DNA of 32,000 nt from positions 297,392 through 329,391 of the forward strand of contig JAUWGH010000004.1 of NCBI GenBank assembly GCA_030606485.1, in the 5' to 3' direction. Below are positions 10,885 to 32,000 of the stretch, one piece after another. A program made the translations under genes and the position numbers. The notes below the pieces were generated by a model. That model was not told the origin of the DNA and did no database searches. It worked only from the letters and a program-made list of their open reading frames with translations. How positions within the stretch are numbered: position 1 is the stretch's first letter; each line of letters starts with the position of its first letter. This DNA comes from Promethearchaeota archaeon. GTDB lineage: Archaea > Asgardarchaeota > Lokiarchaeia > Sigyniarchaeales > SOKP01.

Positions 10885-10901
10885 TTATTAAGAGTGATAT
10901 T

Positions 10902-13555: not shown

Positions 13556-13560
13556 TTTTT

Positions 13561-14184: not shown

Positions 14185-14192
14185 AAGTTTAT

Positions 14193-15140
14193 GTGGATAA
14201 TATGTTGGAAAATTCAAAAATAGTAGTCTTAGCGGGGGGAATAGGTGCAGCACGGTTAATACGAGGTTTAATTGAAGTTTTACCTCAAAAAAAATTTCAA
14301 ATTATCGTCAATACTGGAGATGATATTGAGTTATTTGGGCTAAAAATCTGTCCTGATATCGACATTATAACTTATACAGTAGCAAATTTAGTAGATGAGA
14401 ATAAGGGGTGGGGATTTAAAGATGAGAGTTTTACCTGTTTAAATATTTTAAAAAAATATTATGGTTTTAATTGGTTTAACATTGGAGATAAGGATGCTGC
14501 AACACATATCTACAGAACAGATTTAATGTCAAAAGGATTTTCTAAGTCAGAAGCCACAAAAAAAATTTGTGATAAATTAGGAGTTAAATGTGAGATTATA
14601 CCTATGACTGATACATGGGTGGAAACTCATATAATAACACCGCGTGGAGATATTCATTTTGAAGAATATTTTATTAAGTATAAGACTAATATCGGCATTA
14701 TAGATGTTATTTTTAAGGGAATAGACCAAGCAAAACCAGTTAATGGCGTATTAGAAAAAATTAAGCAAGCGAAAAAAATTATTATATGCCCATCAAATCC
14801 TATTGTATCAATTAAACCAATTTTAGAGGTAAAGGGAATAAGAGCTGCCCTAAAAGAAGTGAAAGAAAAAGTAATTGGAGTTAGTCCTTTAATAAAAGGG
14901 GCTCCAGTAAAAGGTCCAACGGATAAATTAATGAAAGCATTAAATCTTGAAGTATCTTCTTTTGGAATAGCAAAATATTATGCAGATTTTTTAGGACATT
15001 TTATCATTGACATAAGAGATGAAAAATTTACTTTAAAAATTGAAAACCTTGGAATTAAAACCCATTTATATGATATTTTAATGATAAATTTACAAAAAAA
15101 AGTAGCATTAGCAAAATATATTCTAAATTTAGACATATGA
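14193..15140 (+). CDS. cofD: 2-phospho-L-lactate (or phosphoenolpyruvate) transferase of F420 biosynthesis
   Basis: VVLAGGIGAARLIRGL, IVNTGDD, NIGDKDAATHIYRTDL, ICPSNPIVSIKPILEV, SPLIKGAPVKGPTDKLM. Confidence 0.95.
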   Translation: MDNMLENSKIVVLAGGIGAARLIRGLIEVLPQKKFQIIVNTGDDIELFGLKICPDIDIITYTVANLVDENKGWGFKDESFTCLNILKKYYGFNWFNIGDKDAATHIYRTDLMSKGFSKSEATKKICDKLGVKCEIIPMTDTWVETHIITPRGDIHFEEYFIKYKTNIGIIDVIFKGIDQAKPVNGVLEKIKQAKKIIICPSNPIVSIKPILEVKGIRAALKEVKEKVIGVSPLIKGAPVKGPTDKLMKALNLEVSSFGIAKYYADFLGHFIIDIRDEKFTLKIENLGIKTHLYDILMINLQKKVALAKYILNLDI

Positions 15141-15147
15141 AAAGTTA

Positions 15148-16593
15148 TTATGTGATTGAAACCTCTCCCTCTTCTTCAATGATTTCACTCTTTTCCTGTT
15201 CTGTAGAGACTAGATAATCTCCAACAGTAGCTTCAATTTCTTTTATTTCTTTTTCTTCCTTTAATTGACTAATAAGGGCTCGCTTTTTAACATAAGATAT
15301 TATTTGAGCACTTAGAGGGAAAAGTAATATAATTGGCAACATTACAACAAGTATTATTTCCGGTGAGAACATTGCAACACTTCCTGATATTGCCTCCGGT
15401 AAATTCAAAACTGAATTAATTATCCAAGAAGTATGGAGAATAATAAAACCAATAAAGATTAATGCAATTACTCTAATAAAAAAACTGGTGAGAGTTGAAA
15501 CAATGAGTTTAGAAGGTCTTGGTGCGGAACTTGTAGCTGTGAGTGTATCTCTTGCTTCTGAATCTTCTACAAACAATCTTTCTATATAACTCCCTAATCG
15601 CCTTGTATCATGAGCAGCAGAAATCAGTTTCTTTTCCTCTTCTTCTAATTTCTTTTTTAATATCATCTCCTTAATATACGAGAATTTTTGTTCCTTTTTT
15701 CCTAAGAACTTAGAAATTTTTGCCTCCTTTTCAATTCCCAATTCTTCCTTTTTCTTTTTACTTTCTTCTTTAATTTGTTCAATATTTGTTGTAATCTCCA
15801 AGGCTTCTTTTTTTAATACATCTAATTGAGATTCTAACCTTTCAGATCTTTCTAAAGAGGGCATTGATATTAAATTTATATAATTTATTTGAAAGGATAG
15901 ATCTAGATAAATATAAAGTGCAAGTGCCAATTGAAAAATAGAACTTAAAATAAAAGATATAAAGTCATTAACAGGTCTCTCAAGAATAGATGAAAAGAGA
16001 GGATTTGGAAGATCATCCAAATATTCTATACTAATATTAAATAAATTAAACGCATTTCTTAATCCTTCAAAGAATAGTGGGATTATAATCATTCCTACAA
16101 GGCAACCAACTACCCAAAAATTATATTTTGGATTTGTTTGAAGTGTGGATCTGATAAAATTAATAATTAAAAGCAAAAATAAGATTTGGAATGATACATT
16201 ATAAATATCATCCGTTATTAATTCAATTTGATTTAATAAACGACTTGGAATCTGGCCTAAGGATTCTATTGGTCCTTCTGGAAATGCAAACCATGAGTTT
16301 AAAAGACCTTTAAATAAATTATCAAGAAAATTACGCATAAAAGAGGGATCGAAATAGCTATGCCATAAAAACAAGAAAATTACCATCATAGATAATCCTA
16401 TTGCGACTAAATAGAGCAATCCAAAAATTAAATAGCTAACAATATTCTTTAAAGAAGTTATTACATTTATTACTGCAGCAAAGTCAATTAAACTCTGATC
16501 AAAAATCGTATTAAAAATTGCTAAAATCCAAAAAAATACTAAAATATTTGCAACTTTTAATGTTGTTAGATACCATCTTACCATTTTTATCAC
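15148..16593 (-). CDS. Hypothetical multi-pass membrane protein with a long charged coiled-coil segment
   Basis: Multiple hydrophobic segments (VANILVFFWILAIFN, NIVSYLIFGLLYLVAIGLSMMVIFLFLW, FQILFLLLIINFI, etc.) separated by a Lys/Glu-rich helical region (ERLESQLDVLKKEALEITTNIEQIKEESKKKKEELG). Last gene of the operon. Confidence 0.75.
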   Translation of the reverse strand: MIKMVRWYLTTLKVANILVFFWILAIFNTIFDQSLIDFAAVINVITSLKNIVSYLIFGLLYLVAIGLSMMVIFLFLWHSYFDPSFMRNFLDNLFKGLLNSWFAFPEGPIESLGQIPSRLLNQIELITDDIYNVSFQILFLLLIINFIRSTLQTNPKYNFWVVGCLVGMIIIPLFFEGLRNAFNLFNISIEYLDDLPNPLFSSILERPVNDFISFILSSIFQLALALYIYLDLSFQINYINLISMPSLERSERLESQLDVLKKEALEITTNIEQIKEESKKKKEELGIEKEAKISKFLGKKEQKFSYIKEMILKKKLEEEEKKLISAAHDTRRLGSYIERLFVEDSEARDTLTATSSAPRPSKLIVSTLTSFFIRVIALIFIGFIILHTSWIINSVLNLPEAISGSVAMFSPEIILVVMLPIILLFPLSAQIISYVKKRALISQLKEEKEIKEIEATVGDYLVSTEQEKSEIIEEEGEVSIT

Positions 16594-16620: not shown

Positions 16621-17925
16621 TCAATATGCTTTTCCCTTCTTTTTGACTTCTAAGTATTGGGCTAAGATCTGAGACATCATATCATCTGGACCCACACTAA
16701 TAATTGGTACCCCTAATGTTCTAGCACTATGTCTTATCTTTAAAACTTGTTCCATCATTTCTTCTGATATTGCTTCAGCTAGCGCCTTATCACTTGGAGA
16801 TAAATCAACCTCGTGAATTTCAAACCAAGGACTGAATGGACTTATGACGACTAGAGAATGCTTCCACATTACAATTTTTTTAATTCCCTTAATAATATCA
16901 TCAGAAGTTTGCTCTAAATCTGTAATTAAAAACACTAAACTCCTTTTTTGAAATTGTTTATTAATAAAATCCATTGCTTCTTCTAATTTAGTTTTACCAG
17001 ATGGTTTTACTTTTGCGATAAAATCAAGCACTTGATAGAAATGATTGCTCCCACTATTGGGTTCTTTAAAATGATAATTTTTCTTATCTGAAAATAAGAA
17101 AACCCCTACTGAATCTCTTCTCGTAAGTGAAATCTTTGTTAATAACATTGTAGCTCTAATGGCATATTCGAATTTTGTATTTTCAATCGATCCACCTGCC
17201 ATAGATTCTCCACAATCAACCATAATCAGGACTGTAATGTCTCTCTCTGATTCATATTCTTTAACTATGAGTTTCTGATGACGAACACTTGCTTTCCAAT
17301 CTATTAATCTAAATTGGTCTCCAAAAGCATATTTTCTCAATCCAAAGAATTCAGAGCCCAAACCTTTCATCTTTGATCTTTGAATACCATAGTTTAAACT
17401 GAGAGATCTTTTTGAACCAAGAATTTCAATTCGTTTAATATCTTCATAAGGAGGATAAATTAAAATTTTCGTGACTGATTTTGGAACGATTCTTTCTTCA
17501 GAATTAAAACCTAATCTATCTTTTACGATGACGGATAATGGCCCAAATGGATATTCACCTCGTACTCTTGGTTGTAATACGTAGGAAAATTTTATTGTTT
17601 CTTTTGGATCAATTCTTGTTAAAATATGATTTTCTCCTAAAACCAATCTAAAAAGTGTAGGGTTGTAATAATCTCTCACTTCGATAAATTCAAATTTATT
17701 TTTTCCCAAATTCTCTAATATGACTTTTACATGGACAAAATCGTCTTTAAATACCTTATTTTTCTCTAATTCCCTCGTAACTTTGAGATCTTCAATATTT
17801 AATCCTAAATGAAACGATGGCAGGCTGATAATAGTACTAAATAGAAGTATAATTGCAAGAAATATTAAAAAAAAATTGACAAAGGCAAACCCTGCCATTA
17901 AAAAAAATGCAGAGAGCAGTATCAA
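16621..17925 (-). CDS. DUF58 domain-containing protein with vWA-like fold
   Basis: EFFGLRKYAFGDQFRLIDWKASVRHQKLIVKEYESERDITVLIMVDCGESM is the DUF58 signature; two N-terminal hydrophobic segments. Confidence 0.93.
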   Translation of the reverse strand: MILLSAFFLMAGFAFVNFFLIFLAIILLFSTIISLPSFHLGLNIEDLKVTRELEKNKVFKDDFVHVKVILENLGKNKFEFIEVRDYYNPTLFRLVLGENHILTRIDPKETIKFSYVLQPRVRGEYPFGPLSVIVKDRLGFNSEERIVPKSVTKILIYPPYEDIKRIEILGSKRSLSLNYGIQRSKMKGLGSEFFGLRKYAFGDQFRLIDWKASVRHQKLIVKEYESERDITVLIMVDCGESMAGGSIENTKFEYAIRATMLLTKISLTRRDSVGVFLFSDKKNYHFKEPNSGSNHFYQVLDFIAKVKPSGKTKLEEAMDFINKQFQKRSLVFLITDLEQTSDDIIKGIKKIVMWKHSLVVISPFSPWFEIHEVDLSPSDKALAEAISEEMMEQVLKIRHSARTLGVPIISVGPDDMMSQILAQYLEVKKKGKAY

Positions 17926-17972: not shown

Positions 17973-18953
17973 TTAGATAGGAACTGGAAGATCTTCTATA
18001 ATTCTCTTAATAACTGTACTAGAATTAAGACCTTCTAATTCTGCTTCTGGTTTTAATAAAATTCGATGGTTTAATACTGATATACAAAGTGATTTTACGT
18101 CATCAGGAGTTACATAATTCCGTCCTAGAATTGCTGCTCTTGCCTTACCACATTTCATTAACGCCAAACTTGCTCTAGGTCCAGCTCCAAGAGCAATTTG
18201 TGGGTGTTGCCTAGATTTGACTATAATATCTCTGATATATTTTAAAATTCTATCATCGATATATACCATATTTACCAAGTTTTGAATTTGAATTATTTCT
18301 TCTGAATTTGTTATATTTTCAACTTCACTTATATCTCCAGATAATTGTCGGCGAATAATCTCAACCTCATCATCTATATCCGGATAATCAAGCCAAAGTT
18401 TAAAAATGAATCGGTCAACTTGTGCCTCTGGAAGGGGATATGTACCTTCCATTTCTATTGGATTTTCTGTTGCAATGACCATAAATGGTTTTTCTAATAT
18501 CCTAGTTTCATTTTCAATTGTTACTTGCCGTTCAGCCATCGCTTCTAGAAGAGCTGCTTGAGTTTTAGGGGCAGTTCTATTAATTTCATCCGCGAGAACA
18601 ATATTAGCGAAGATTGGTCCTGGCATTAATACAAAACTACCTTCACTTTGATCAAAAATCTTGGAGCCAGTGATGTCTGCAGGTAATAAATCTGGTGTAA
18701 ATTGTACTCTACTAAATGACATACCAAGAACTTTTGCAAAAGTCTTAGCCATGACTGTTTTTCCTAAACCTGGCACGCCTTCTAACAGAACATGACCGTT
18801 TACTAGAAGAGCGATAAAAAGGTGCTGCATGATTTCTCCATATCCTACAATAACGCATGCTACTTCTGAAAGAACATTTTGTGCAACATTTCTTACTGGA
18901 GATAGGTCAAATTCTTGTCCAAATCGGTCTTTTACTTTTTTTGGTGCTTCCAT
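17973..18953 (-). CDS. MoxR-family AAA+ ATPase
   Basis: LLEGVPGLGKTVMAKTFAK (Walker A), RVQFTPDLLPADITGS, ANIVLADEINRTAPKTQAALLEAMAERQVTIE (Walker B/sensor), ATENPIEMEGTYPLPEAQVDRFIFK. Confidence 0.97.
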   Translation of the reverse strand: MEAPKKVKDRFGQEFDLSPVRNVAQNVLSEVACVIVGYGEIMQHLFIALLVNGHVLLEGVPGLGKTVMAKTFAKVLGMSFSRVQFTPDLLPADITGSKIFDQSEGSFVLMPGPIFANIVLADEINRTAPKTQAALLEAMAERQVTIENETRILEKPFMVIATENPIEMEGTYPLPEAQVDRFIFKLWLDYPDIDDEVEIIRRQLSGDISEVENITNSEEIIQIQNLVNMVYIDDRILKYIRDIIVKSRQHPQIALGAGPRASLALMKCGKARAAILGRNYVTPDDVKSLCISVLNHRILLKPEAELEGLNSSTVIKRIIEDLPVPI

Positions 18954-19017: not shown

Positions 19018-20691
19018 TTAAATTTGATTCATTGCCCATTCCATTTCGAAATATAACTTTTGGAAATCTTCAGGATCTTTAATTTTCTTTTTATTATTTT
19101 TAACGCCAATTATTGCTTCAAAAAAATTATTTAATCTTCTTAAATTTGATTTTGAAATATTGGTTTTTCCTTTTACCATAATAATTAAATTAATTATATT
19201 TTCTACAGTAAAGGCTCGACCTTTTAATAAAGAATTGATTTTTCTCTCAAGCCTTCTGAATAGTAAAGTTAATGCTTGATTAAATTTACGATTATCTTTA
19301 TACCAATTAATTTTTCTTGCAAAGAAGGAAGAGGTCCGGAATTTCAATGTTTCTTCTTTCTTTTCCTCTTTTTTTTCTATCTCTTTTTCTTCTTCTTTAG
19401 CTTCTTTAGGTAAATATCTTTTAAGGGTATAAATTCCCAGTAATGGATAAATAAAGGCAGTTAGAGGATTTGTTGATAAATGAATTACATAACCAAGATA
19501 AAGGCCAAAAACGCCTGCAGATGATACATCTGGCAAATTTTCAGGTCTTATATGAGCCTCATCAAAAGCGATTATATAATTTGAAGGATTTCCAAAGGTA
19601 AGCCAGTTCAAAATATTTAATGCAAATTGTTTATTATCATAATTATCATTATTTATTAGTTCATTATCAAATAAACTGGCATCTGCAGAACAGAATATAC
19701 GGGAATGGCTTCCAACATCAGTTGCCATGAATACTGCTTGCGGGTACCCTCCTAATGGTATTGTAAAATCGCCTTTAATACCTAAAAATTCACCCATACC
19801 TCCAAATAAGGTATATCCATCATTTTCACTAGTATATATTCCATCTCCGTTTCTATCTACAAAGCTATATTGACTTGATTGGCCAATTAAACTCCATCCA
19901 AACATTTCAATAAATGGGCCACCTAAAGCACAAGATGATCTACTTAAAATTACATTGGAAATTCCTTGGGTTGTTGGGTGAAATTGGAAATTTGTTATAA
20001 TAGGGAATGTTGGATTTTTGTCATATGAAGCATTATCACGCAAAATTCCTTCAGGAAATATAGTTACGGGGAATGATCCAGCACTTGTAATTGCAATTTG
20101 ATATAATAATTCTGATGTACTTCCATGATCATGACATACAAATAGGGAGTTATTTCCTTTCATAAAATCAATAAAAAACGGAATTTCATATAATGGATTA
20201 TAAAAACGATTTGCTCCCATTATAATTAAAACTACAGGTTTATCAAGTCTCTGAGTTGCACTTAAGTCAGTTTGAATTGAAAAAACATTGTAACCATTCG
20301 CTTCGAGTGTATCTTTCAATTCAGAACATCCATTCCATTGAGAATTATGTATAGAAAAATTATGATCATTTTTTCCTTGATCTATTATAGAAGATAATAG
20401 AGGTATGAAAGATAAAACGAAAATTATAAGGAATAAACTCTGTTTCCAACTAATCTTCACTTTTTTCTCTGATTTTGCCTGTCGGGTTTTTAATTTTCTA
20501 GAAGCCATAATGAAAATTATAAGTCTAATTCCAATGATTCCGGCACCTAAGAAACATACCATTGGAAGGAAACTAACAAAATAGGGAGCATTCGTAACAG
20601 TAGACAATTGAATTCCCACTATTATTAAATACACAGTAAAAAAAATATAAACTATGTATTTTGAAACTACAACACTTTTTCTTTCTGGCAT
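19018..20691 (-). CDS. Membrane protein with DUF4350-like domain
   Basis: N-terminal two-TM hairpin, VVLIIMGANRFYNPLYEIPFFIDFMKGNNSLFVCHDHG, YIIAFDEAHIRPENLP and following TM segment. The position next to MoxR/DUF58 is typical of DUF4350-containing operons. Confidence 0.75.
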   Translation of the reverse strand: MPERKSVVVSKYIVYIFFTVYLIIVGIQLSTVTNAPYFVSFLPMVCFLGAGIIGIRLIIFIMASRKLKTRQAKSEKKVKISWKQSLFLIIFVLSFIPLLSSIIDQGKNDHNFSIHNSQWNGCSELKDTLEANGYNVFSIQTDLSATQRLDKPVVLIIMGANRFYNPLYEIPFFIDFMKGNNSLFVCHDHGSTSELLYQIAITSAGSFPVTIFPEGILRDNASYDKNPTFPIITNFQFHPTTQGISNVILSRSSCALGGPFIEMFGWSLIGQSSQYSFVDRNGDGIYTSENDGYTLFGGMGEFLGIKGDFTIPLGGYPQAVFMATDVGSHSRIFCSADASLFDNELINNDNYDNKQFALNILNWLTFGNPSNYIIAFDEAHIRPENLPDVSSAGVFGLYLGYVIHLSTNPLTAFIYPLLGIYTLKRYLPKEAKEEEKEIEKKEEKKEETLKFRTSSFFARKINWYKDNRKFNQALTLLFRRLERKINSLLKGRAFTVENIINLIIMVKGKTNISKSNLRRLNNFFEAIIGVKNNKKKIKDPEDFQKLYFEMEWAMNQI

Positions 20692-20723: not shown

Positions 20724-21089
20724 TTAAAATCTGAATTGTTTTCCAGTTATTTCTGTATAGACTTTTGAAAACAAACTTAATGTGGCTTTGAAATCAGTTT
20801 CAGTAGGTTCAACTCCTCCGTATATCGTTTCCTCAATTTTTTGAATGAATGGATAAATAATTTCTGGATTTTGGCCTAATTTTTTTACGCAAGTTATTGC
20901 AAATTCACGAATAGTTTCGAAAAATTTTCTTGGTTGGCCAAATTTTTGCCGGATTAAATCAGTATAAATTAAATAAATGTATGCAATAGATTCTTTCATA
21001 CGATTTGTTTGATTTAATACTTGTATATTCCTTTTTTTACTTTCTATATCAAAAATGGGTTGTGATTTCTTTTTTTTACTTTTTGCCAT
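20724..21089 (-). CDS. Small soluble protein made of a DUF4129-like helical domain
   Basis: ETIREFAITCVKKLGQNPEIIYPFIQKIEETIYG aligns by eye with the C-terminus of the neighbouring 523-aa protein. Confidence 0.6.
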   Translation of the reverse strand: MAKSKKKKSQPIFDIESKKRNIQVLNQTNRMKESIAYIYLIYTDLIRQKFGQPRKFFETIREFAITCVKKLGQNPEIIYPFIQKIEETIYGGVEPTETDFKATLSLFSKVYTEITGKQFRF

Positions 21090-21147: not shown

Positions 21148-22719
21148 TTATTTCAATGTAATTTTATATCCGGTAAAATCATAAAATAATGTAATAAACT
21201 GAGAGAAAATTTCTTCAAAATCTTCTTCACTAATTTTACCTCCACTTCCATATAAAATTTGTTCAATTTTTTTTATGAAAGGATATATTTTTGAAGGCGG
21301 AAGCCCCATATCTCTAACACATTTAATGGCATAATCATTAATCGTTTCATTAGACTTCTTTATTACTCCATATTTAGCTTCACTAAGTTGTAAAAAGACA
21401 TAAAATAGATAAACAACTGATTCTTCACGCCTATCGGTATCTTTAAGTATAGTTATGTTTTTTAACTTATTTTCGAGAGGGATTTGGACAACTTTAGGCT
21501 CAGCAGCTTGTCTCTTACTAAAAAAATAAACGGCAGTAATAATTCCCGCTATTATTACAATTAGAATAATAATTGTAACTGGATTAATTAATAATCCGCC
21601 CGGGGGAGGTGGTTCAGCACCAGCAGTGACATTAACAATGATTGATGATTTTACTGGGAGATGGAGGAGATTATCAGTTGAAACAGTTAATGTACCATTT
21701 CCTGATGGCATAAAATTAAATGAAAAACCACCACTACTATTTGTTGTTAAATTTTTAATTAAAACTCCACCAAATTCAATATTAATTGATCTGTTAAATA
21801 TTTTAAAGGAGGAATTTGTGGATGATGTTAATTCTCCTCGAACAGTTATATTCTGCACTTCGGTGATGTTCTTAGGTATATCCCATTTGCATGTGAAGTT
21901 TGAAAATACCAATAAATTATTAATTATTAAACTTGATTCATAAATGTTTGGAGAACCGGTGAAATTAAGAACCAGCTCAATTGAACTCCAACTAGTAGAA
22001 GGGAGAGAAATTTGTCCAGAAAAAAGTCCATTTAAATCGGTTGTTATAGTGCCTTGGTGTGAGTCTGAACCATTGATTCTCCAATATGCATCTACATCTG
22101 TTGTAGAAATTCCAGAATTATTATCAAAATATAAATTTCCTTTAATTTTATAATTTTCACCATTAACTTTAGGATTATAGTTTGTCTCTTTATAGAACAT
22201 TTTTGAGTCTGCTGAAACATAAATAAGGTAATAGTGATTGTATTTCGTATTTTTAGGATCTGTTACATTTATATTGATTATATGTGATTGATAGATATTA
22301 ACCCACATAGGTATTTTTGTTGTTATTGTAAAATTTCCAGTTGAGTCTGTTACATCTTTTGCACCAATACTTTCTCCAAAATCTATTCCATCGAAAATTA
22401 ATGTAACATTTACATTGGGTTGACCTCCACCTAAAAAAGGGTTATATACAATTCCCTTTACTGTTATTGATTCATAATGCTTAAAATGTGAATTATTTAC
22501 TTCAGTTGGATTTGTTAAATTTAAAAAATAACTATATACTATACTTGGTCTTGGGCTTAGACCTTTTTCGATTTTATTTTCATTTATTAAAGTTTTATTT
22601 GAATAAAATGAAACATTTAACCAAATTATGAAAAATGTAATTATTATTATGAGAAGAAGTTTCATATTTTTTAAGTTTTTGTAGGGATACAATTTATTTT
22701 TCACCTTAATTACACCCAT
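21148..22719 (-). CDS. Membrane-anchored protein: extracellular Ig-like domains, one C-terminal TM, cytoplasmic DUF4129-like domain
   Basis: N-terminal TM (LLLIIITFFIIWLNVSFYS), beta-rich Asn-rich ectodomain, TM (NPVTIIILIVIIAGIITAVYFFS), then ETINDYAIKCVRDMGLPPSKIYPFIKKIEQILYG. Its start codon overlaps the end of the upstream 1471-aa ORF by 10 nt. Confidence 0.75.
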   Translation of the reverse strand: MGVIKVKNKLYPYKNLKNMKLLLIIIITFFIIWLNVSFYSNKTLINENKIEKGLSPRPSIVYSYFLNLTNPTEVNNSHFKHYESITVKGIVYNPFLGGGQPNVNVTLIFDGIDFGESIGAKDVTDSTGNFTITTKIPMWVNIYQSHIININVTDPKNTKYNHYYLIYVSADSKMFYKETNYNPKVNGENYKIKGNLYFDNNSGISTTDVDAYWRINGSDSHQGTITTDLNGLFSGQISLPSTSWSSIELVLNFTGSPNIYESSLIINNLLVFSNFTCKWDIPKNITEVQNITVRGELTSSTNSSFKIFNRSINIEFGGVLIKNLTTNSSGGFSFNFMPSGNGTLTVSTDNLLHLPVKSSIIVNVTAGAEPPPPGGLLINPVTIIILIVIIAGIITAVYFFSKRQAAEPKVVQIPLENKLKNITILKDTDRREESVVYLFYVFLQLSEAKYGVIKKSNETINDYAIKCVRDMGLPPSKIYPFIKKIEQILYGSGGKISEEDFEEIFSQFITLFYDFTGYKITLK

Positions 22720-25700
22720 GGCAACCTAATTCTGAATTCTAATATAAAATTATCTCCATAATAAGTAGCAAATACTCTATCAGCAAGATCCCATCCCGAT
22801 TGTATTGTAATATATCCCCAAAATTCACCTCCGACTAAAGTAGTATAAGATATTTCTGCATATACATATCCTTGGGAATCTTCAAGAGTCATATTTACAT
22901 CATATCCAACCATAGCAATTCCATTATCCCAAGTTAAATTTCCGTGAATTGTAATTATTTCACCCTCACCAAAATAATCTTCAAAATAAGAATCATAGTA
23001 TCCATCAATTATATTGGTTCCAGCGGAAACATTAAGGACTTTTGGCATGCTACTATTTGAGATCATATAATCATTGAGGTTTATGCTACAAAATGGATCT
23101 GGATGATCAATAATTGTTCCATTAAAATCAACCCGTATATCATATTTACCATATGGTATCGATATATTGACTTTGAATATAAACATGTAATCCCAATTAG
23201 TATTCTGAGATATAATCATAGAAGGATAATAACCAGCTTGGAAGATAAGATAATCGGAGTAATCATTTGAATTATTAAATAATTTAATTGTAACTTCCAC
23301 TTGCTTCATTTTTATATTATTATATGTATCCTTAACAGACCCAGATACATTTATCCAATCAATGTTTCTAATAACAACATCATTCTTAACAACAGAAATT
23401 TCTACATTTTTACTTCCATTCAATATAATAAAAGTATAATTTAGGAAATCATAACCATCCAATTGATATAATACTTTGATTTTATGAGGACCTACGACCC
23501 ATGATTCATTTATGTTAGATATAAACTCTATGTATCCATCTTCATCTGTTTGGCCAGAATTTAATAACCTATTTTCATAAACATCGTATAGAAATACATC
23601 ACCATATTGCTCAGGATTCTCGCCACACATTACTTTTACTGTGAAATTAACATTATCATTACGGTTAAAGGATTGAGGGGGATAATTATTATCATAAGTA
23701 GGTAATGCTTCATTTCCATCTATCCAAAGAGCAATTGAGATACTATAAGGATCTTTTATTTTTAAATCCATTATAGTAGATGTTGATGTATTAATATAGG
23801 TAAGGAAGAAATTATGCGGAAAATCATTGTCTTGATTTAAATAATAAAAGGTTCCATTAAAATCAATTCTTAAGGAATAATTTCCAGCCGGAATAGTATT
23901 ACTTACATCAAAATTTAGATCAAAGGTACCATCTGCACCACAATAATAAGGATTAGTGCTAGGATATATAGGAATGAGTTGTGTATTGAATTTATTATTA
24001 TTTTTAATTAAATTTACAGTAATTTCTGCATATTTTATAGGTCTATTATAAAGATCATCAACAATTGTACCTTTTATATTAAACGCAGTGTCTATTGAAC
24101 CACTTCGATTAATAATATTTGGAACAGGCTTTGGTGGATTTATTTCTATTCTGATGGCTTCATATATAATGAAATAAGAGTAATTCTTTAAACTGCCCAA
24201 TTCCCATTCCGCATAAACCAAATGTGGTCCTGCCAATAAATCACCGGCGTTTAAATAATATGTAATATTTGCACATCCATTCTCATCTGTAGTTTTTACA
24301 CCTATTTCGGAATTATTTGTTTCATCGAAAAATCTGACTAATTCTCCCTCTAAAGGACCGCTTCCACCTTGAAGATTAATTTTTAAATTTAATTCTTGAG
24401 TTCTTTTTACAATTGGTTGTTCATACTCAGAAGTTGAAGTTCCATTTATCCAGAAATCAAGGATTTGAATATCTGGAGCTTCAATTTTTAAATCCATCAC
24501 TGTAGATGTAGATGTGTTTATATAGGGAAGATTGAAAAGATATGGATAATCTTGACTTAAGTAATCAAATATTCCGTTAAAATCGATTCTTATAGAATAA
24601 TTTCCAGGAAGAATGTTATCATCAACATTAAAATTTAGATCAAACGATCCATATTCACCACAATCAAAAAGAATAGGATATGGAGGTTGTAGATAGCTAG
24701 AATAATCTACTAAATTCTTAAATAATCTTACAGAAACTTGTGCATATTTTATGGGATTATTGTTTGTGTCATCTAGAATAGAACCTTTTATATTAAATGT
24801 GTAATCACCCACATCAATTCGATTAATAATATTAGGAACCGGTCTTGGTGGATTAAGATCTATTCTAACATTATCATCCAATATAAAATATGAATAATTC
24901 TCTTGACTACCACATTGTGCATAAATTAAATGAGGTCCTGCTATTTTATCATAATCTAAATTATAATTAAAGAAGATCTCTCCATTAAAGTTAGTATCTT
25001 CAGTATGTATTGGTGGTCCTAAAGGATCTTCTGTAATATCGTATAAATTAATTGTTCTCCCTTGTAAAGGCCCACCACTTAATGAATATAATACTACTCT
25101 CAATTCAACCGAAGTGTTTCTTTTTACTCTAGGATTAGAAAAATCATCAGAGGGATACCCATTAATAAATAAATCTAAAAAGATAGCATCGGGATTTATA
25201 ATTTGAACAGAGATTTCTGAACTAGAATCACTTAATTGAGGATATGAATAAAATTGAGAAAAAACTCCAGAAAGAAATCCGATTTGAAATGATCCGTTAA
25301 AATCAACTCTAATACCATATGTTCCGCTCACTACATGATCATTCACATATACAATAATGTTATAATCTCCATCATTATCAGTTAATTCAGAATCGGGAGT
25401 GAATGCTAGTGAAATCTTATTATTAGATGAATCTAAGAGTATAAATTCCACCTCTCCATTAGAAACTCCCTTTCCGTTTAAGGGATCAAAAAGTACTCCC
25501 ATTATTCTAGTATTACTGCTAACGGTTTTATCAATAATAGTGGGATCAACATCAGTAAGATTTACTTCTATGGGTGCATTTAGAAAATAAATAGTGTAAT
25601 TAATAGTAAATCCCGTAGATGCTTGAATTAGATGGGGTCCTGCAACAGTCTGATCGTTAATATCAACTATTATGGAGCATTTACCATCATTATTTGTTAT

Positions 25701-27125
25701 TCCTTCACCTAAATTTGGATTATTTTCCGTTGAATCCTCAAAAATAATAGTTATTCCCTCTTGAGGGGTTCCGTCTGAAAAAAGTTCTGCAATAATTTCA
25801 ACTGAATCCCCGCGAATTACGGGAGTAGTTGTATTAGTATAAACATTTAATTCCATTTCTTCAAAAGTTAAGGGATTTCCTCCTCCAAAGCTTTCAAATA
25901 AAACATCCATTTCAGTCCAGACACCAGATCCATCAACAGCTAATGGAACATAAATTTCTGACCATGAATAAAGATTTAACCTTCTAATTATCGAATAGTT
26001 TTTATCTTCTTGAGCATTATAATGTTCGCTCGGATAGATAGGGAATTTTCGAGAATTGAAACCATCAACATATCGACTTGCAATTCCAAACGCACGAGCA
26101 AATGCTGTAAAAGTTGCAGCAAAATCAGAGAAAATTCCAGATTGTTCACCACAAAACCATTCAACTACGTCTTGTCCATGAGCGGGGCGATTATAAGGAG
26201 GAAGGACATCAATATCAAAATTTTCTTGCAAATAATTTCTAATTTTATTAGCTTTTACATATGCATTATCTGTAGAATTAATAATTGCATCTAATGCATC
26301 ATAATGGCTTTTAAAATTTGGATTATTTAAGATATATCCTGGTATGCCTCCTGGGTCTGGTAATTGATAATATTGATCTTTTATCGCATTAGGAGTATAA
26401 GTTTCCATAACAGCGGAAGTATTTAATTCAGTTGGACTCATAACGGATTCGCTAAATAAATCATATGTAAGATTACAAGAATATGCTTCATCAAAAGAAA
26501 AGCTCATTGATGCTACATTGAAAATATCTTTATATAATAGAAGAGAACTTTCATCAAATTCAGGTGACCATGGATCTACCCATGAATGCTCCCACGGATG
26601 ATCCATAATGTAAGGTGTAGGGAATAAGGCGGGAATTACCAATGAATTTTCTCCTGCTGTTGCATCAATTGGATATTTTATTCTTATTATATCTCTATCT
26701 GAATAGTCATTATTATAATCATGCCAGTAAGTAAATTCTGTTGGGCTTACCCCAGATACTGATTGGGACCAACTCCCATCGTTATTATATTCATCCGCTA
26801 CAGAGAATTTCCATAGCCAAGATTCATCAAAAGGATCATAATCTTCAATATAAAAAACTGCTTCTCCAGCGTGTTCTAGGAGGTCATCATAATCGAGAAG
26901 ATCCGTCAAATTAAACATATCAAATGCAATATCGAATAATTCTGCCTCTTCTTCTGGTGCATTTGCTAATTCATCTGATGGAGTTGTTCTTATACCGAAT
27001 ATTAGCCCAAATAAAGCTATAGAGCCCAAATATAGCCCAAAGAGTAAGATAGCTATTAATATTATTGAAATAGCTTGCTTTATTGTATTTCCTTCAGTAA
27101 TAAGCTCCTTTCTTCTCTCAGACAT
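22710..27125 (-). CDS. Large surface protein: N-terminal TM anchor, transglutaminase-like domain (apparently catalytically inactive), tandem Ig-like modules
   Basis: TM IKQAISIILIAILLFGLYLGSIALFGLIFGI. Transglutaminase-core pattern SGIFSDFAATFTAFARAFGIASRYVDGFNS...LNLYSWSEIYVP...GVWTEMD. The long C-terminal region has repeated AGPHLIYA and GNYSIRIDFNG motifs. Confidence 0.85.
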   Translation of the reverse strand: MSERRKELITEGNTIKQAISIILIAILLFGLYLGSIALFGLIFGIRTTPSDELANAPEEEAELFDIAFDMFNLTDLLDYDDLLEHAGEAVFYIEDYDPFDESWLWKFSVADEYNNDGSWSQSVSGVSPTEFTYWHDYNNDYSDRDIIRIKYPIDATAGENSLVIPALFPTPYIMDHPWEHSWVDPWSPEFDESSLLLYKDIFNVASMSFSFDEAYSCNLTYDLFSESVMSPTELNTSAVMETYTPNAIKDQYYQLPDPGGIPGYILNNPNFKSHYDALDAIINSTDNAYVKANKIRNYLQENFDIDVLPPYNRPAHGQDVVEWFCGEQSGIFSDFAATFTAFARAFGIASRYVDGFNSRKFPIYPSEHYNAQEDKNYSIIRRLNLYSWSEIYVPLAVDGSGVWTEMDVLFESFGGGNPLTFEEMELNVYTNTTTPVIRGDSVEIIAELFSDGTPQEGITIIFEDSTENNPNLGEGITNNDGKCSIIVDINDQTVAGPHLIQASTGFTINYTIYFLNAPIEVNLTDVDPTIIDKTVSSNTRIMGVLFDPLNGKGVSNGEVEFILLDSSNNKISLAFTPDSELTDNDGDYNIIVYVNDHVVSGTYGIRVDFNGSFQIGFLSGVFSQFYSYPQLSDSSSEISVQIINPDAIFLDLFINGYPSDDFSNPRVKRNTSVELRVVLYSLSGGPLQGRTINLYDITEDPLGPPIHTEDTNFNGEIFFNYNLDYDKIAGPHLIYAQCGSQENYSYFILDDNVRIDLNPPRPVPNIINRIDVGDYTFNIKGSILDDTNNNPIKYAQVSVRLFKNLVDYSSYLQPPYPILFDCGEYGSFDLNFNVDDNILPGNYSIRIDFNGIFDYLSQDYPYLFNLPYINTSTSTVMDLKIEAPDIQILDFWINGTSTSEYEQPIVKRTQELNLKINLQGGSGPLEGELVRFFDETNNSEIGVKTTDENGCANITYYLNAGDLLAGPHLVYAEWELGSLKNYSYFIIYEAIRIEINPPKPVPNIINRSGSIDTAFNIKGTIVDDLYNRPIKYAEITVNLIKNNNKFNTQLIPIYPSTNPYYCGADGTFDLNFDVSNTIPAGNYSLRIDFNGTFYYLNQDNDFPHNFFLTYINTSTSTIMDLKIKDPYSISIALWIDGNEALPTYDNNYPPQSFNRNDNVNFTVKVMCGENPEQYGDVFLYDVYENRLLNSGQTDEDGYIEFISNINESWVVGPHKIKVLYQLDGYDFLNYTFIILNGSKNVEISVVKNDVVIRNIDWINVSGSVKDTYNNIKMKQVEVTIKLFNNSNDYSDYLIFQAGYYPSMIISQNTNWDYMFIFKVNISIPYGKYDIRVDFNGTIIDHPDPFCSINLNDYMISNSSMPKVLNVSAGTNIIDGYYDSYFEDYFGEGEIITIHGNLTWDNGIAMVGYDVNMTLEDSQGYVYAEISYTTLVGGEFWGYITIQSGWDLADRVFATYYGDNFILEFRIRLPWV
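23090..25860 (-). repeat. Four tandem protein-level two-domain (A-B) Ig-like modules, period about 705-730 bp
   Basis: Marker A (AGPHLIQA / AGPHLIYA / AGPHLVYA / VGPHKIKV) near 25.63, 24.93, 24.22 and 23.49 kb alternates with marker B (GTYGIRVDFNG / GNYSIRIDFNG / GNYSLRIDFNG / GKYDIRVDFNG). Boundaries are approximate. Confidence 0.75.
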
Positions 27126-27356: not shown

Positions 27357-28238
27357 TTAAAATTCATAGCCACATTTGGTGCATATATTTTTCTTTGCGT
27401 AAATTGGTTTAGGAATGTAGGACACTATTTTGGTTTTGTCTTCAACCTCTTTAATCGCAGTAGAGCCACAATTAGGGCAAACTCTTCTTATTCCAGTACC
27501 TAATCCAATTGCGGGAGATATTATTGGTTCAGTTGAAGGCATTGAGGGTGTCGGTTCAGTTGAAGGTATTGAGGGTGTTGGTGCTGGTGTTGGCATAGTA
27601 GGTTGTTGGCTAAAAGGATAAGGACTTGTAGAAGCAAGTGTAGAAGGCATTACAGGTTTTGGCTCTTTTAATTCTTCAATTCTTTTATTTTTTGCTGAAA
27701 TTTCTTGGGTTAATTCATTTACTTTTGCTTGTATTGGACCAATTTGTTGTTTTAATTGAACATTTTCAGCCGAAAAGTAACGTGCTTGAGTTTGTGCTTC
27801 TGCTAATTGTGTTTGTAGTTGTTGAATATGTGAATTGAGTTGATTTACCTGATTTTTATGGACTTCCATCGATTGCTGGAGAGTAGCAAGTTGTTGGTTT
27901 AGTTGATTAATTTGAGCATCCTTTTGAGTTGCAATATTTTGTAATTCATTAATTTGATTATTTTTATTTTGCAGTTCGGTCTCTAACTGGTTAATTTGCC
28001 TATTCAAATCTTGTACTTGAGTTTGAATTTGACCTATATCTACTGAAGATATTTGGGTGGATGGCAATGGTGGTTGTGGCGCTGGAGGGGGAGAAGGTGT
28101 TTGTACTGGGGGAGGAATCGGTGGACTTATCGGAGGCGGGATTTGAGTAGGGGCTGGTGGTGGAGGTGTGTATGGAGGTGCTCCTAAAGGTTTTTTTTCC
28201 TCTTCTTCTTCTTTTTCAGGATCACGTTCATCTGACAT
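27357..28238 (-). CDS. Polyproline N-terminus / coiled-coil / C-terminal zinc-ribbon protein
   Basis: PPYTPPPPAPTQIPPPISPPIPPPVQTPSPPPAPQPPLP; heptad-rich QIQTQVQDLNRQINQLETELQNKNNQINELQ...; CPNCGS...CTKCGYEF at the C-terminus. Confidence 0.75.
   Translation of the reverse strand: MSDERDPEKEEEEEKKPLGAPPYTPPPPAPTQIPPPISPPIPPPVQTPSPPPAPQPPLPSTQISSVDIGQIQTQVQDLNRQINQLETELQNKNNQINELQNIATQKDAQINQLNQQLATLQQSMEVHKNQVNQLNSHIQQLQTQLAEAQTQARYFSAENVQLKQQIGPIQAKVNELTQEISAKNKRIEELKEPKPVMPSTLASTSPYPFSQQPTMPTPAPTPSIPSTEPTPSMPSTEPIISPAIGLGTGIRRVCPNCGSTAIKEVEDKTKIVSYIPKPIYAKKNICTKCGYEF
27526..27579 (-). repeat. Two tandem copies of a 27-bp unit within the coding sequence (encodes repeated PSM/IPSTEPT)
   Basis: ggttcagttgaaggcattgagggtgtc (27526-27552) followed by ggttcagttgaaggtattgagggtgtt (27553-27579); two mismatches. 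Confidence 0.9.
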
Positions 28239-28379: not shown

Positions 28380-29465
28380 TTAAAAACAATTCCAATATTC
28401 TGATAAGTTATTCTTGATTTGTTTGATAAGTCTTTCCTGGGTATATTCAAGTATTTTTTCATCAGATTTTCTTTCATCTTCGGAAATTAAATCAGTTTCA
28501 CTGTTTAGAACTTTTAATACATTATATATTGCTTGAGCCTGTTTATCTAATTCATATCCTCCTTCTAAAGTAATTAAGATTTTTCCATTGGCATAATCAT
28601 CAGCTAGTGATTTAATCAGTTTTGTAAGATTTGCTGGCCCTTGGATTGTCCAGCCCATTCTTGTCAGGAGGTCGGTATGATGAGTATCAAAACCAGCAGA
28701 GATTAGGATAAATTCTGGTTTAAATTCATTTGTTATTGGAATTGCTATTTCTTTATACAACAATTGAATTATATCATCACCAGAGGAAGGAGCCATAGGG
28801 AAATTGATTATATGGCCCTCTCCCTTTCCTGAGCCAATTTCATTAGTAAATCCGGTTCCAGGATAGAGAGTTCGTCCATCTTGATGAGAACTGAAAAAAA
28901 GTAATTGTCCATTTTCTGAGCCATCATAAAATATGTCTTGGGTTCCGTTTCCATGGTGGCAATCCCAATCGAAGATTGCAACTTTTTTTACATTTTTTTC
29001 TCTAAAGAGATATTCCGCAGCGATTGCAATATTATTAAAAATACAAAAACCTGCGCATTTATATTTATTGGAATGATGCCCAGGTGGTCTAACAAGACCA
29101 AAAGCGCTACTAATTTCTCCCTTTAATATTTTATCAATACCAGTTAAATTTCCCCCAACTGAATATAAAGAAGATTCAAAAGTATCTCCAGAAACAACGG
29201 TGTCCATATCGATATTTTTTAAACTCTCTGTTTTTGCTGCTAAATCACTTAGTTCCTTAATTTGCTCAATTAGCCTCTCCGAGTGAACATATTTTATCTG
29301 ATCAATGGTTGCCTTGCGGGGTTTAATAACTGGAAATTCTTTAGAGTTCCAAATACCCTTTTCCTCTAAAAATTTTTTCGCTACAATAAGTCTTTTTGGC
29401 GTCTCTACATGGACTCCTACTTCATGTTTTAAATAAATCTCGTCATAAATTAATCCAACTGGCAT
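28380..29465 (-). CDS. Histone deacetylase family protein (HDAC/acetylpolyamine amidohydrolase superfamily)
   Basis: LVRPPGHHS, CIFNNIAIAA, IFDWDCHHGNGTQDIFY, ISAGFDTHHTD, TLEGGYE; the metal-binding and catalytic residues look intact. Confidence 0.94.
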   Translation of the reverse strand: MPVGLIYDEIYLKHEVGVHVETPKRLIVAKKFLEEKGIWNSKEFPVIKPRKATIDQIKYVHSERLIEQIKELSDLAAKTESLKNIDMDTVVSGDTFESSLYSVGGNLTGIDKILKGEISSAFGLVRPPGHHSNKYKCAGFCIFNNIAIAAEYLFREKNVKKVAIFDWDCHHGNGTQDIFYDGSENGQLLFFSSHQDGRTLYPGTGFTNEIGSGKGEGHIINFPMAPSSGDDIIQLLYKEIAIPITNEFKPEFILISAGFDTHHTDLLTRMGWTIQGPANLTKLIKSLADDYANGKILITLEGGYELDKQAQAIYNVLKVLNSETDLISEDERKSDEKILEYTQERLIKQIKNNLSEYWNCF

Positions 29466-29621: not shown

Positions 29622-30143
29622 ATGAGTGATATTCAAGTGTTTAAATTTAAGTTTGTTATAATTGGTGAAAACGCTGTAGGAAAGACATCTTTAGCGAGAT
29701 CTTTTGTATCTAAGCAATTTGCTACGGATTATAAACCGACAATTGGCAGTAATATCTTTATGCATAATGTTTCTTTATCAGATAATCTTAATGTCTCAGT
29801 TGCTTTATTTGATATTGCTGGTCAAGAGAAGTGGGCAATGATGAGGCATATTTATTATGAAGGAGCTCAAGCAGCTTTTTTAGTTGGGGATGTAACAAGA
29901 GATCGTTCTTTCGATGAGTTAGCAAATTTTTGGTATCCAGATTTTATAAAATTCTGTGAGAAAAAGCCAACAATCTTACTTGCAAATAAGAGTGATTTAG
30001 AATCAAAAACGGATAAGAAGAAAATTGAAGAAGCGGCAAAAAAAATAGGAGCTATAGATATTGTTTATACTTCTGCAAAAACGGGAGAAAATTGTGATGA
30101 TGCGTTAAAAAAGCTCGTATTATATTGTATGAATCAAATTTAA
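29622..30143 (+). CDS. Ras/Rab-like small GTPase
   Basis: GENAVGKTS (G1), PTIGSNI (G2), DIAGQEKW (G3), ANKSD (G4), TSAKTGEN (G5). No C-terminal Cys prenylation motif (ends YCMNQI). Confidence 0.94.
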   Translation: MSDIQVFKFKFVIIGENAVGKTSLARSFVSKQFATDYKPTIGSNIFMHNVSLSDNLNVSVALFDIAGQEKWAMMRHIYYEGAQAAFLVGDVTRDRSFDELANFWYPDFIKFCEKKPTILLANKSDLESKTDKKKIEEAAKKIGAIDIVYTSAKTGENCDDALKKLVLYCMNQI

Positions 30144-30144
30144 C

Positions 30145-32000
30145 TCATCTATTATCCACAAATTTTATATATTTATTTCTAGGTTTATAAAGAGTTCCTT
30201 CTTTTACAGCTTGATCAATGGTTTCCTCAATAAATTCTTTATCTAGATCTTCTTCCATTTCAAGTATTTCCATAACATTTTCTATTTCGACTGCTTTTCC
30301 GTCATTTTCATTGATCATATTCTTTATTCTATCTAAGATTTTAGTTATTTTATTTATCTTTGAGCGAGTCTGTCCGGTAAAAATTCTATCGATGTCAAAT
30401 TTACCAGTGCTTTCATCATATCCTACATCTCGTAAGAATCTGTTAAATATTTTTATTATTTCTTCGACATCTTCTATTAAAACTTTATCTCTTAAAGCCA
30501 TTTTTGCATATGATTCACTTAATCTAATCAAAGCTTCTAAATTTCTTGCTAATATTGATATTATTGCTTGTTCTGCATCGTATTTACCTCTTAAATCTAA
30601 ATAATACTCCTTTATTTTATCTTTTGCTTCTTGTGTTAAAACTGGAAAACAATTATTACGTGCATAATGAATATATTTTTTAAGAAGGTCATGATTTATG
30701 GGAATTAATGGTTCGTCAGCATTTTGAGAGATTTTTGTAAAATCACCAGTAGCTTGTTCTAAAATGAATTCTGCCAATTGAGCGTCTTTAGCTTTATCAG
30801 GCTCATCCATAACAATAAAAATAAGATCAAACCTTGAAAGTAATGTTGGTGGTTGTCTAATGTTCTCAGTAGGTGTCTTATATTTATTATATCTACCCTG
30901 ATAGGGATTTCCAGCAGCAATTATACCAGTTTGAGCTCTTAATGTAGCTATAATTCCTGCCTTGGCTATACTAACGGTCTGTTGAGCCATCGCCTCGTGT
31001 ATTGCAGCAATATCTTGTGATTCCATTTTATCAAACTCATCTATAGCAGCAATTCCTCCATCAGCTAATACAATTGCCCCAGCTTCAAGAGACATAGTTC
31101 CTGTATCTGGATCTTTTACAACAGCTGCCGTAAGTCCTACAGCTGTAGAGCCTTTACCAGATGTATATAATGCTCGGGGAGAAACATTAACAGCGGCCTT
31201 AAGAATCTCACTTTTCCCAGTTCCAGGATCTCCTACAAATAATACATGAATATCTCCTCTTCTATAAGTTCCATCAATTTTTTTTAATCTAGTACCCCCA
31301 AACAAGCATAAAGCGGTTGCCAACTTCAAATCCTCTCTTCCATATATGGATGATGCAATAGATCTGGCGATTTTCCTTTGAATATATGGTTCTGCAGCGA
31401 GTTCTTTAATTTGTTGCAGTTCTTCTGGAGTTGGATAAAAATCTTTATCCTCTTTATCTGAAGATTTAATAGAATTCACATCAATAAAAGTTCTAAATAT
31501 AAGTGAGCCTTTTCCTTTAGCATTTTTTTGTGGCAATGATTTGAAAGCTCCCATTATTTTTACACGATCACCAGGACGTACTTTATCGACTAAATCTTTA
31601 ATAAGAATCCCATCAATGGATCTAGGTATTCTTCCAGCTGGCAACTCTTCTGGTGTTTCCTGTATTGTTATTTTCTGCCAATCAATAAAATCAGATTTTT
31701 TAGAAATGAAAATAAAATCTTTTTGAGTATTTGCCTTACATTTTGGATTCATACAATGATTTGGCCAAATAAGTGTGTTGGATAGTTGAATTTGTGGGAA
31801 TTCAGTATCGCATCTTAAACATTTATAAATCGCATTTTCTAATTTTGGACGAACAGTAGAAGCGCGAAGCAAAATTCCACGTGTAAAAATTAATTTATCA
31901 ATATGTTTTGATCTTAATCCTCTAAGCAAAATAAGATTAGAATCATTATCTGTTGAAATTTGAATAAAATATTCTACTTCATCCTTTAATTTGCCTCCAG
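30145..32000 (-). CDS. mcm: Replicative DNA helicase MCM (5' end truncated by window)
   Basis: GDPGTGKSEILK (Walker A), LADGGIAAIDEFDKM (Walker B), PPTLLSRFDLIFI arginine finger, CLRC...HCMNPKC zinc finger. The listed TTG start at 31929 is internal: the frame continues to the window edge (GGKLKDEVEYFIQISTDNDSNLI...). Confidence 0.96.
   Translation of the reverse strand, partial: GGKLKDEVEYFIQISTDNDSNLILLRGLRSKHIDKLIFTRGILLRASTVRPKLENAIYKCLRCDTEFPQIQLSNTLIWPNHCMNPKCKANTQKDFIFISKKSDFIDWQKITIQETPEELPAGRIPRSIDGILIKDLVDKVRPGDRVKIMGAFKSLPQKNAKGKGSLIFRTFIDVNSIKSSDKEDKDFYPTPEELQQIKELAAEPYIQRKIARSIASSIYGREDLKLATALCLFGGTRLKKIDGTYRRGDIHVLFVGDPGTGKSEILKAAVNVSPRALYTSGKGSTAVGLTAAVVKDPDTGTMSLEAGAIVLADGGIAAIDEFDKMESQDIAAIHEAMAQQTVSIAKAGIIATLRAQTGIIAAGNPYQGRYNKYKTPTENIRQPPTLLSRFDLIFIVMDEPDKAKDAQLAEFILEQATGDFTKISQNADEPLIPINHDLLKKYIHYARNNCFPVLTQEAKDKIKEYYLDLRGKYDAEQAIISILARNLEALIRLSESYAKMALRDKVLIEDVEEIIKIFNRFLRDVGYDESTGKFDIDRIFTGQTRSKINKITKILDRIKNMINENDGKAVEIENVMEILEMEEDLDKEFIEETIDQAVKEGTLYKPRNKYIKFVDNR

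Follow-up and report, generated by a model that had tools for sequence, protein, structure and literature searches.

A conserved transglutaminase-like ectodomain lacking the catalytic Cys and His in a MoxR-DUF58-associated gene cluster of Asgard archaea

The locus and its transglutaminase-like protein

The window analyzed in this study is a 32,000-nucleotide stretch of contig JAUWGH010000004.1 from a Promethearchaeota archaeon (assembly GCA_030606485.1, positions 297,392 to 329,391). Its minus strand carries an uninterrupted open reading frame (ORF) of 1471 amino acids (aa) for a transglutaminase (TG)-like protein in which the catalytic Cys and His are replaced by Phe and Tyr, and the loss of this catalytic pair proved to be shared by a whole family of Asgard proteins. 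An earlier reading of the same DNA, made from the letters and the ORF translations without database searches (hereafter, the sequence-only reading), had described the domain as a TG-like pseudoenzyme. The protein comprises the following features:

22710..27125, minus strand: whole TG-like ORF, 1471 aa; an anchor at the N-terminus is followed by the TgpA-type ectodomain and ~1000 aa of immunoglobulin (Ig)-like/macroglobulin (MG)-like repeats
26988..27074, minus strand: single hydrophobic signal-anchor segment, about aa 18-46 (aa 12-46 in the hydropathy profile), preceded by R/K residues
26316..26870, minus strand: beta-sandwich lobe on the N-terminal side, aa 86-270; its motif LWKFSVADEYNNDGSW corresponds to YWRALTMERFDGRRW of TgpA
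25905..26285, minus strand: TG-like core, aa 281-407, from the PF01841 match and the fold model
26151..26153, minus strand: Cys325 (EWFC), codon tgt read from the sequence
26130..26132, minus strand: Phe332 at the nucleophile (Cys) position, codon ttc read from the sequence; first residue of the core helix
25968..25970, minus strand: Tyr386 at the general-base (His) position, codon tat read from the sequence
25905..25907, minus strand: Asp407, the retained third triad residue, codon gat read from the sequence
22713..25805, minus strand: Ig-like/MG-like/CarboxypepD_reg-like repeats, aa 441-1471, rich in sequons

The Pfam model Transglut_core (PF01841) covers aa 281-407 with an E-value of 1e-13 and 51.9 bits against a gathering cutoff of 23, which places the domain call far above chance. 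All of the motifs quoted in the sequence-only reading (WFCGEQSGIFSDFA, FARAFGIASRYVDGFN, LNLYSWSEIYVP and VWTEMDV) are found in the ORF, and its description of a TG-like domain with the expected motif surroundings is thus borne out by both the Pfam match and the motifs themselves. The strand opposite the core contains a 94-aa ORF with a TTG start (26010-26294, plus strand), which is almost certainly spurious given how strongly the protein encoded on the minus strand is conserved.

Hydropathy analysis of the 1471-aa protein revealed no transmembrane (TM) segment beyond the N-terminal one, whose orientation would be N-in, C-out. The protein contains 33 N-x-S/T sequons (2.2 per 100 aa, as compared to 4.0 per 100 aa in g523, the product of the adjacent gene, and 0-1.7 per 100 aa in the cytoplasmic neighbor proteins). 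The anchor following R/K residues, the number of sequons and the periplasmic location of the homologous TgpA domain (PMC3507681) together suggest a location at the cell surface, with the protein facing outward and probably N-glycosylated.

Catalytic positions and fold

A single-sequence phmmer search of the domain against the PDB gave only one match, EBA-140, which is spurious (E 0.68), and a family profile was therefore needed. This profile was searched against all PDB sequences in two versions, built from 11 and from 55 sequences, and matched TgpA of Pseudomonas aeruginosa (6g49) at E 2.8e-4 and E 1.7e-16, respectively. It also aligned with factor XIII, TG2/TG3, the Cytophaga TG-like protease 3isr and PNGase. 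In the profile alignments the column occupied by Phe332 (W/F in the family) holds Cys in TgpA (SGFCAHYA), Cys314 in factor XIII (GQCWVFAG) and Cys in PNGase (GRCGEWAN). The column of Tyr386 holds His in TgpA (DAHAWVEYW) and in factor XIII (NYHCWNEAW), and that of Asp407 holds Asp in both (WLSVDPT and WQAVDST, respectively). Since the profile aligns to solved, active enzymes, the catalytic columns can be considered fixed. Overall, of the three catalytic residues that characterize the superfamily only Asp is present. The sequence-only reading had assigned Phe332, Tyr386 and Asp407 to these same positions, and its assignment agrees with the codons as well as with the alignments.

An AlphaFold2 model computed with 11 sequences had a predicted local distance difference test (pLDDT) score of 51.5 and was discarded; the 55-sequence alignment yielded a model with a pLDDT of 91.3 and a predicted template-modeling (TM) score (pTM) of 0.89. 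In papain-fold enzymes the nucleophile sits at the start of the core helix, and in the model Phe332 is the first residue of a long core helix (aa 332-345), while Tyr386 opens a beta-strand (aa 385-394) and Asp407 comes after the next strand (aa 401-406). A comparison of such a model with an active TG-like fold had been suggested along with the sequence-only reading, and its best match is the periplasmic domain of TgpA. Foldseek against the PDB placed 6g4h (E 1.8e-12) and 6g49 (E 9.5e-12) on top, over ~340 aligned columns and with a TM-score of 0.60 on the target, followed by 3isr (E 1.3e-5) and then 3kd4. The modeled domain has the fold of the TG-like superfamily, a core helix on a beta-sheet as in the solved members, and aa 86-440 are modeled as a TgpA-type two-lobed ectodomain composed of a beta-sandwich and the TG core. 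Relatives of the protein match TgpA_N (PF11992) in Pfam.

Family-wide loss of the catalytic pair

A search of 1.84 billion cluster representatives returned 6107 relatives at E<=1e-3 and 79 at E<=1e-30, to which a profile search, with fewer matches than the single-sequence query, added little. The core family was defined by E<1e-80 and comprises 50 domains of cluster representatives. Its Cys position is aromatic in 46 of 49 domains (W 29, Y 9, F 8), the remainder being P 2 and S 1, and its His position is Tyr in all of the 48 domains; the Asp position is conserved in 45 of 47 (D 45, N 1, E 1). A scan of GTDB with one genome per species produced 62 loci, or 63 with the addition of locus L001. 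The 62 carry the labels Promethearchaeota/Promethearchaeia, Hodarchaeota, Hermodarchaeota, in one case "Odinarchaeota", or uncultured archaeon, and all of those with a lineage label are Asgard. Triads in the 63 loci are WYD (47), YYD (7), FYD (4), SYD (1) and WYE (1). Neither Cys at the nucleophile site nor His at the base site occurs in any of the 63 Asgard loci or in any of the 50 representative domains.

The ratio of nonsynonymous to synonymous substitution rates (dN/dS) of the TG core is the lowest of any segment of the protein (0.22, 0.26 and 0.19 for orthologs at 88%, 77% and 53% identity, respectively), as compared to 0.36-0.37 in the Ig-like region, and many residues of the surface motifs stay unchanged even between phyla. 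Selection acts on the replacement residues as well, which argues for a pseudoenzyme and not a decaying gene; catalytic residues are lost, the fold is kept and selection is purifying. The claim of the sequence-only reading that the catalytic pair was lost without gene decay can thus be extended from a single protein to the family.

Asgard relatives with other triads

Moderately distant relatives of the family also come from Asgard archaea, and some retain catalytic residues. Among the relatives found, the closest one whose triad is intact is a 1564-aa protein from Jordarchaeales (P0061, MEM2777369.1), which belongs to the same Asgard branch of the superfamily and matches the family profile at E 3e-55. 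It contains two TG cores (Cys-His-Asp in the first, Pro-His-Asp in the second), MG/Ig-like repeats and, according to Pfam, a C-terminal fused DUF4129. As in the Loki-type clusters described below, genes for DUF4350, MoxR, DUF58 and a protein of ~440 aa (437 aa here) follow downstream (locus L064). It differs from the Loki-type protein in the Cys-His-Asp kept by its first TG domain and in the fusion with DUF4129. In one Asgard class, therefore, the operon has a live triad, and in others the triad is dead. An intermediate combination is found in Freyrarchaeum (P0054; Cys-Tyr-Asp and Pro-Tyr-Asp), and a Thorarchaeota relative (P0098) has Pro at the Cys site and a fused DUF4129. These present-day states suggest the hypothesis that His was replaced by Tyr before Cys gave way to an aromatic residue. 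Since the TG proteins of the Jordarchaeales and Thorarchaeota relatives include DUF4129 in the same chain, the Loki-type cluster looks like a split version of this arrangement.

Among 152 distant relatives, Cys-less domains are frequent (S 29, P 18 and A 14 at the Cys site), which indicates that loss of catalysis is recurrent in the superfamily. Several other patterns were observed along the way. Proteins of 2000-3200 aa (P0071, P0072, P0075 and similar) have three or four TG-like cores per chain, and cores with Cys (GTCG) occur beside cores with Ser or Gly (GTSG, GTGG), so that live and dead domains are mixed in one protein. In another group (P0098, P0106-P0127) the Cys site is occupied by Pro (GGGLPMDFA), and a His stands two residues ahead of the column that normally holds it (K-V-R-H-M-M-F-W-A-E); judged by these motifs, this is an apparent remodeling of the active site that differs from the Loki-type W/Y/D pattern. 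Finally, paralogous TgpA-like proteins of Promethearchaeota (P0055, P0064 and P0067, named "DUF3488 and transglutaminase-like domain-containing" at NCBI) also lack Cys, with Pro at the Cys site and Tyr at the His site.

The gene cluster

The TG-like gene is followed on the same strand by six genes:

21148..22719, minus strand: g523, whose start overlaps the end of the TG-like gene by 10 nucleotides; N-terminal anchor, sequon-rich ectodomain, TM segment and tail
20724..21089, minus strand: g121, small soluble DUF4129-like protein and paralog of the g523 tail (37% identity)
19018..20691, minus strand: DUF4350 membrane protein, from Pfam and hydropathy
17973..18953, minus strand: MoxR-type AAA+ ATPase (AAA_3, E 6e-64) with intact Walker A (GVPGLGKT) and Walker B (LADE)
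16621..17925, minus strand: DUF58/VWA-like protein with an N-terminal membrane segment (DUF58, E 2.5e-32)
15148..16593, minus strand: g481, polytopic membrane protein with a central coiled coil; last conserved gene of the cluster

The 10-nucleotide overlap (22710-22719), which spans the stop region of the TG-like gene and the ATG of g523, suggests translational coupling. In g523 an Ig-like/CarboxypepD_reg-like ectodomain is connected by a TM segment (aa 371-403) to a DUF4129-like cytoplasmic tail. A single-sequence Pfam scan revealed no DUF4129 in either g121 or the g523 tail, and only one of ten orthologs of g121 and the g523 tail matched it (E 5.8e-4); the assignment is indirectly supported by the fusion of DUF4129 in the Jordarchaeales and Thorarchaeota relatives. 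The order TG, g523, g121, DUF4350, MoxR, DUF58, g481 is kept in essentially every sufficiently long contig among the 62 loci. The AAA_3 and DUF58 genes are adjacent, on the same strand and linked to the TG-like gene, and thus constitute a MoxR-DUF58 module. The sequence-only reading was right about the TG-like domain and missed both its TgpA type and its place at the head of this conserved cluster, which together form the most informative context of the domain.

Four conserved genes lie upstream:

30145-31929, minus strand: MCM
29622-30143, plus strand: Ras-like small GTPase
28380-29465, minus strand: HDAC-like deacetylase
27357-28238, minus strand: coiled-coil protein of 293 aa; N-terminus rich in Pro, coiled coil rich in Q/N, zinc ribbon (CPNC...CTKC) at the C-terminus

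The order MCM, Ras-like GTPase, HDAC-like protein, coiled-coil protein and TG-like gene is preserved in most Asgard loci (L004-L063), a synteny that is unusually stable across phylum-level divergence. In nearly all loci the TG-like gene is directly preceded by that of the 293-aa coiled-coil protein, which may be part of the module as well.

Two other groups of genes were noted elsewhere in the window. Genes for a radical SAM protein, a lipoate-protein ligase A/B catalytic domain and a second radical SAM protein follow one another at 9886-12744 (plus strand), an arrangement that we take to resemble the archaeal two-component lipoyl synthase LipS1/LipS2 beside a lipoate ligase. At 12755-15140 (plus strand), consecutive genes for CofE (F420-0:gamma-glutamyl ligase), a nitroreductase-family protein and CofD form a cofactor F420 biosynthesis cluster.

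Interpretation

MoxR-DUF58-TgpA modules are common in bacteria and archaea and their function is unexplained, although TgpA is essential in P. aeruginosa. With an aromatic residue in place of Cys (Phe in this protein, Trp in the majority of relatives) and Tyr in place of His, the thiol-based transamidation, deamidation and proteolysis of the superfamily are impossible for the Asgard domain. On the other hand, its fold, cleft-forming motifs and new residues are under purifying selection, which argues that the domain works non-catalytically. We consider it probable (at roughly 0.6) that the domain is a conserved non-catalytic TgpA-type ectodomain of a MoxR-DUF58-associated envelope module, with a binding or docking function at the base of the Ig-like stalk. 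The proposed scheme would be as follows. A giant, membrane-anchored and outward-facing protein of Promethearchaeota (Loki-type Asgard archaea), probably N-glycosylated, would carry the TG-like ectodomain for binding or docking where its long stalk begins. Its gene would be the first of a seven-gene envelope module, the Asgard counterpart of the MoxR-DUF58-TgpA module of bacteria. In the cytoplasm, the MoxR and DUF58 proteins would presumably assemble or remodel membrane and surface components via DUF4350, the g523 tail, g121 and g481, a scheme that implies a coupling of the TG-like protein to MoxR.

Several considerations weigh against this interpretation. The binding or scaffold role is suggested by conservation, and the aromatic/Tyr pair may either leave a pocket or simply plug the cleft. 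The dN/dS values, calculated by the Nei-Gojobori method (NG86), are approximate in an AT-rich genome. The assignment of DUF4129 to g121 and the g523 tail is weak, and co-transcription of the cluster is suggested by strand, spacing and synteny.

The most serious alternative, plausible but given clearly less credence, is that aromatic and Tyr side chains fill the former active site and that the domain is a purely architectural base or spacer for the Ig-like stalk, without a specific ligand. Bulky aromatics stand exactly at the nucleophile site, Tyr could keep the His-type hydrogen bond to Asp407, and the domain is located between the membrane anchor and the ~1000-aa repeat region. However, no other segment of the protein is under constraint as strong as the TG core, more of its surface-motif residues are invariant than a spacer usually needs, and the close linkage of the gene to six partners suggests that there are specific contacts. 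It is very improbable that the domain is still an enzyme with a relocated or different catalytic set, for example with Cys325 as the nucleophile or with a chemistry based on Tyr386 and Asp407. In its favor, Tyr386 and Asp407 are nearly invariant, the other cleft motifs are kept, and the Cys325 column is Cys in 42 of the 50 family representatives (Leu in 6, Ser in 2) and in 54 of the 62 domain matches from the loci that cover it (Leu in 7, Ser in 1). Yet this leaves Leu or Ser in ~15% of the orthologous family, and the column is Leu in the active TgpA and in 137 of the 152 distant relatives. In the AlphaFold2 model Cys325 lies in a short helix (aa 320-327) ahead of the catalytic helix. Cys325 was accordingly rejected as a replacement nucleophile; in a column that is hydrophobic in TgpA and most distant relatives, it appears to behave as a hydrophobic core position and not as a spare nucleophile. 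The sequence-only reading had named a catalytic center rebuilt from Cys325 and another His as an outcome that would overturn it. The variability of the column and the lack of any conserved His in place of the base in the family speak against such a center, and we know of no TG-fold enzyme with a Tyr/aromatic pair at the nucleophile and base sites. Practically negligible is the explanation by a sequencing or assembly artifact or an early-stage pseudogene, which has nothing in its favor beyond the missing catalytic residues. It is refuted by the intact 1471-aa ORF, by the same substitutions in 62 independent assemblies and 50 cluster representatives, and by dN/dS values well below 1. Likewise, no ortholog within the family keeps the Cys/His pair, which disposes of the other objection raised with the sequence-only reading, that of an assembly error confined to this genome.

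Within the interpretation as a non-catalytic binding module, we tentatively entertain a more specific and rather speculative version, in which the aromatic/Tyr cleft would be a specific glycan- or peptide-binding site on a major conserved cell-surface protein of Loki-, Hod- and Hermod-type Asgard archaea, and the MoxR-DUF58-DUF4350-DUF4129 partners would drive its display or assembly across the membrane. If so, the series from Jordarchaeales (Cys-His-Asp) through Freyrarchaeum (Cys-Tyr-Asp) to Promethearchaeota (Trp/Phe-Tyr-Asp) would provide a tractable system to address both the role of the MoxR-DUF58-TgpA module and the transition from an enzyme to a receptor or scaffold. An Asgard clade that keeps the order of the module and yet abolishes TG thiol chemistry implies that the core job of the module in this clade needs no TG catalysis. 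The searchable literature yielded no account of the Asgard TG-like family or of its gene cluster, and hardly anything on DUF4350/DUF4129. The analysis draws attention to a large and conserved surface protein, probably glycosylated, in the archaea most closely related to eukaryotes, a lineage with poorly characterized envelope proteins, and the live and dead orthologs in sister Asgard classes offer a ready experimental comparison. What the analysis adds to the sequence-only reading is the pattern across the family, the connection to TgpA and MoxR, and the series from live to dead triads among Asgard archaea.

Comparison with known systems

The closest known system is TgpA (PA2873; 6G49/6G4H), the best match of the Asgard domain by both profile and fold, across both lobes. 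The two proteins share the xWRxxxxDxYxGxxW motif, the TG core motifs and a domain on the outer side of the cytoplasmic membrane, a position that is predicted for the Asgard protein. The TgpA chain includes six TM helices (DUF3488/TgpA_N) and presumably a DUF4129 at its C-terminus. In contrast, the Asgard protein has one hydrophobic segment and ~1000 aa of Ig-like repeats, and neither DUF4129 nor a TM segment was found after its repeats by Pfam and hydropathy, DUF4129-like domains being weakly detectable on g523 and g121. Of the traits of the TgpA type it thus displays the two-lobed, presumably outward-facing domain, and lacks the polytopic N-terminal membrane domain and the same-chain DUF4129. 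TgpA has an intact Cys-His-Asp triad, in vitro TG activity and a periplasmic domain, and its gene is co-transcribed with PA2875 and PA2874, which lie upstream of it (PMC3507681), whereas the Asgard protein has Phe in place of Cys and Tyr in place of His. From the missing Cys and His, TG activity is predicted to be absent. PA2875 and PA2874 presumably encode a MoxR ATPase and a DUF58 protein.

A second parallel is provided by the bifidobacterial PFNA cluster (pkb2-fn3-MoxR-DUF58-tgm), in which the MoxR, DUF58 and tgm genes stand together (PMC8430577). It likewise combines a MoxR-proper ATPase, a DUF58 protein and a membrane TG-like protein with a large surface protein of beta-sandwich (FN3) repeats (PMC8430577). 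It differs in gene order and gene set, with a kinase present and no DUF4350, and in having the repeats on a separate protein; its TG-like protein has been described as a presumed cysteine protease (PMC8430577).

The concept of a dead TG domain is not new, being well known in eukaryotes, where EPB42/band 4.2, Rad4/XPC, FBXO21, CC2D2A and Cyk3 serve as scaffolds or binding modules (PMC10318531; see also PMC3495828 and PMC3718969). These are independent losses on unrelated branches, in intracellular proteins with other partners, and Foldseek probabilities for XPC and band 4.2 were low, pointing to no specific relationship with the Asgard family. Nevertheless, they have the same fold with the catalytic residues lost and, as such, provide a precedent for the mechanism proposed here.

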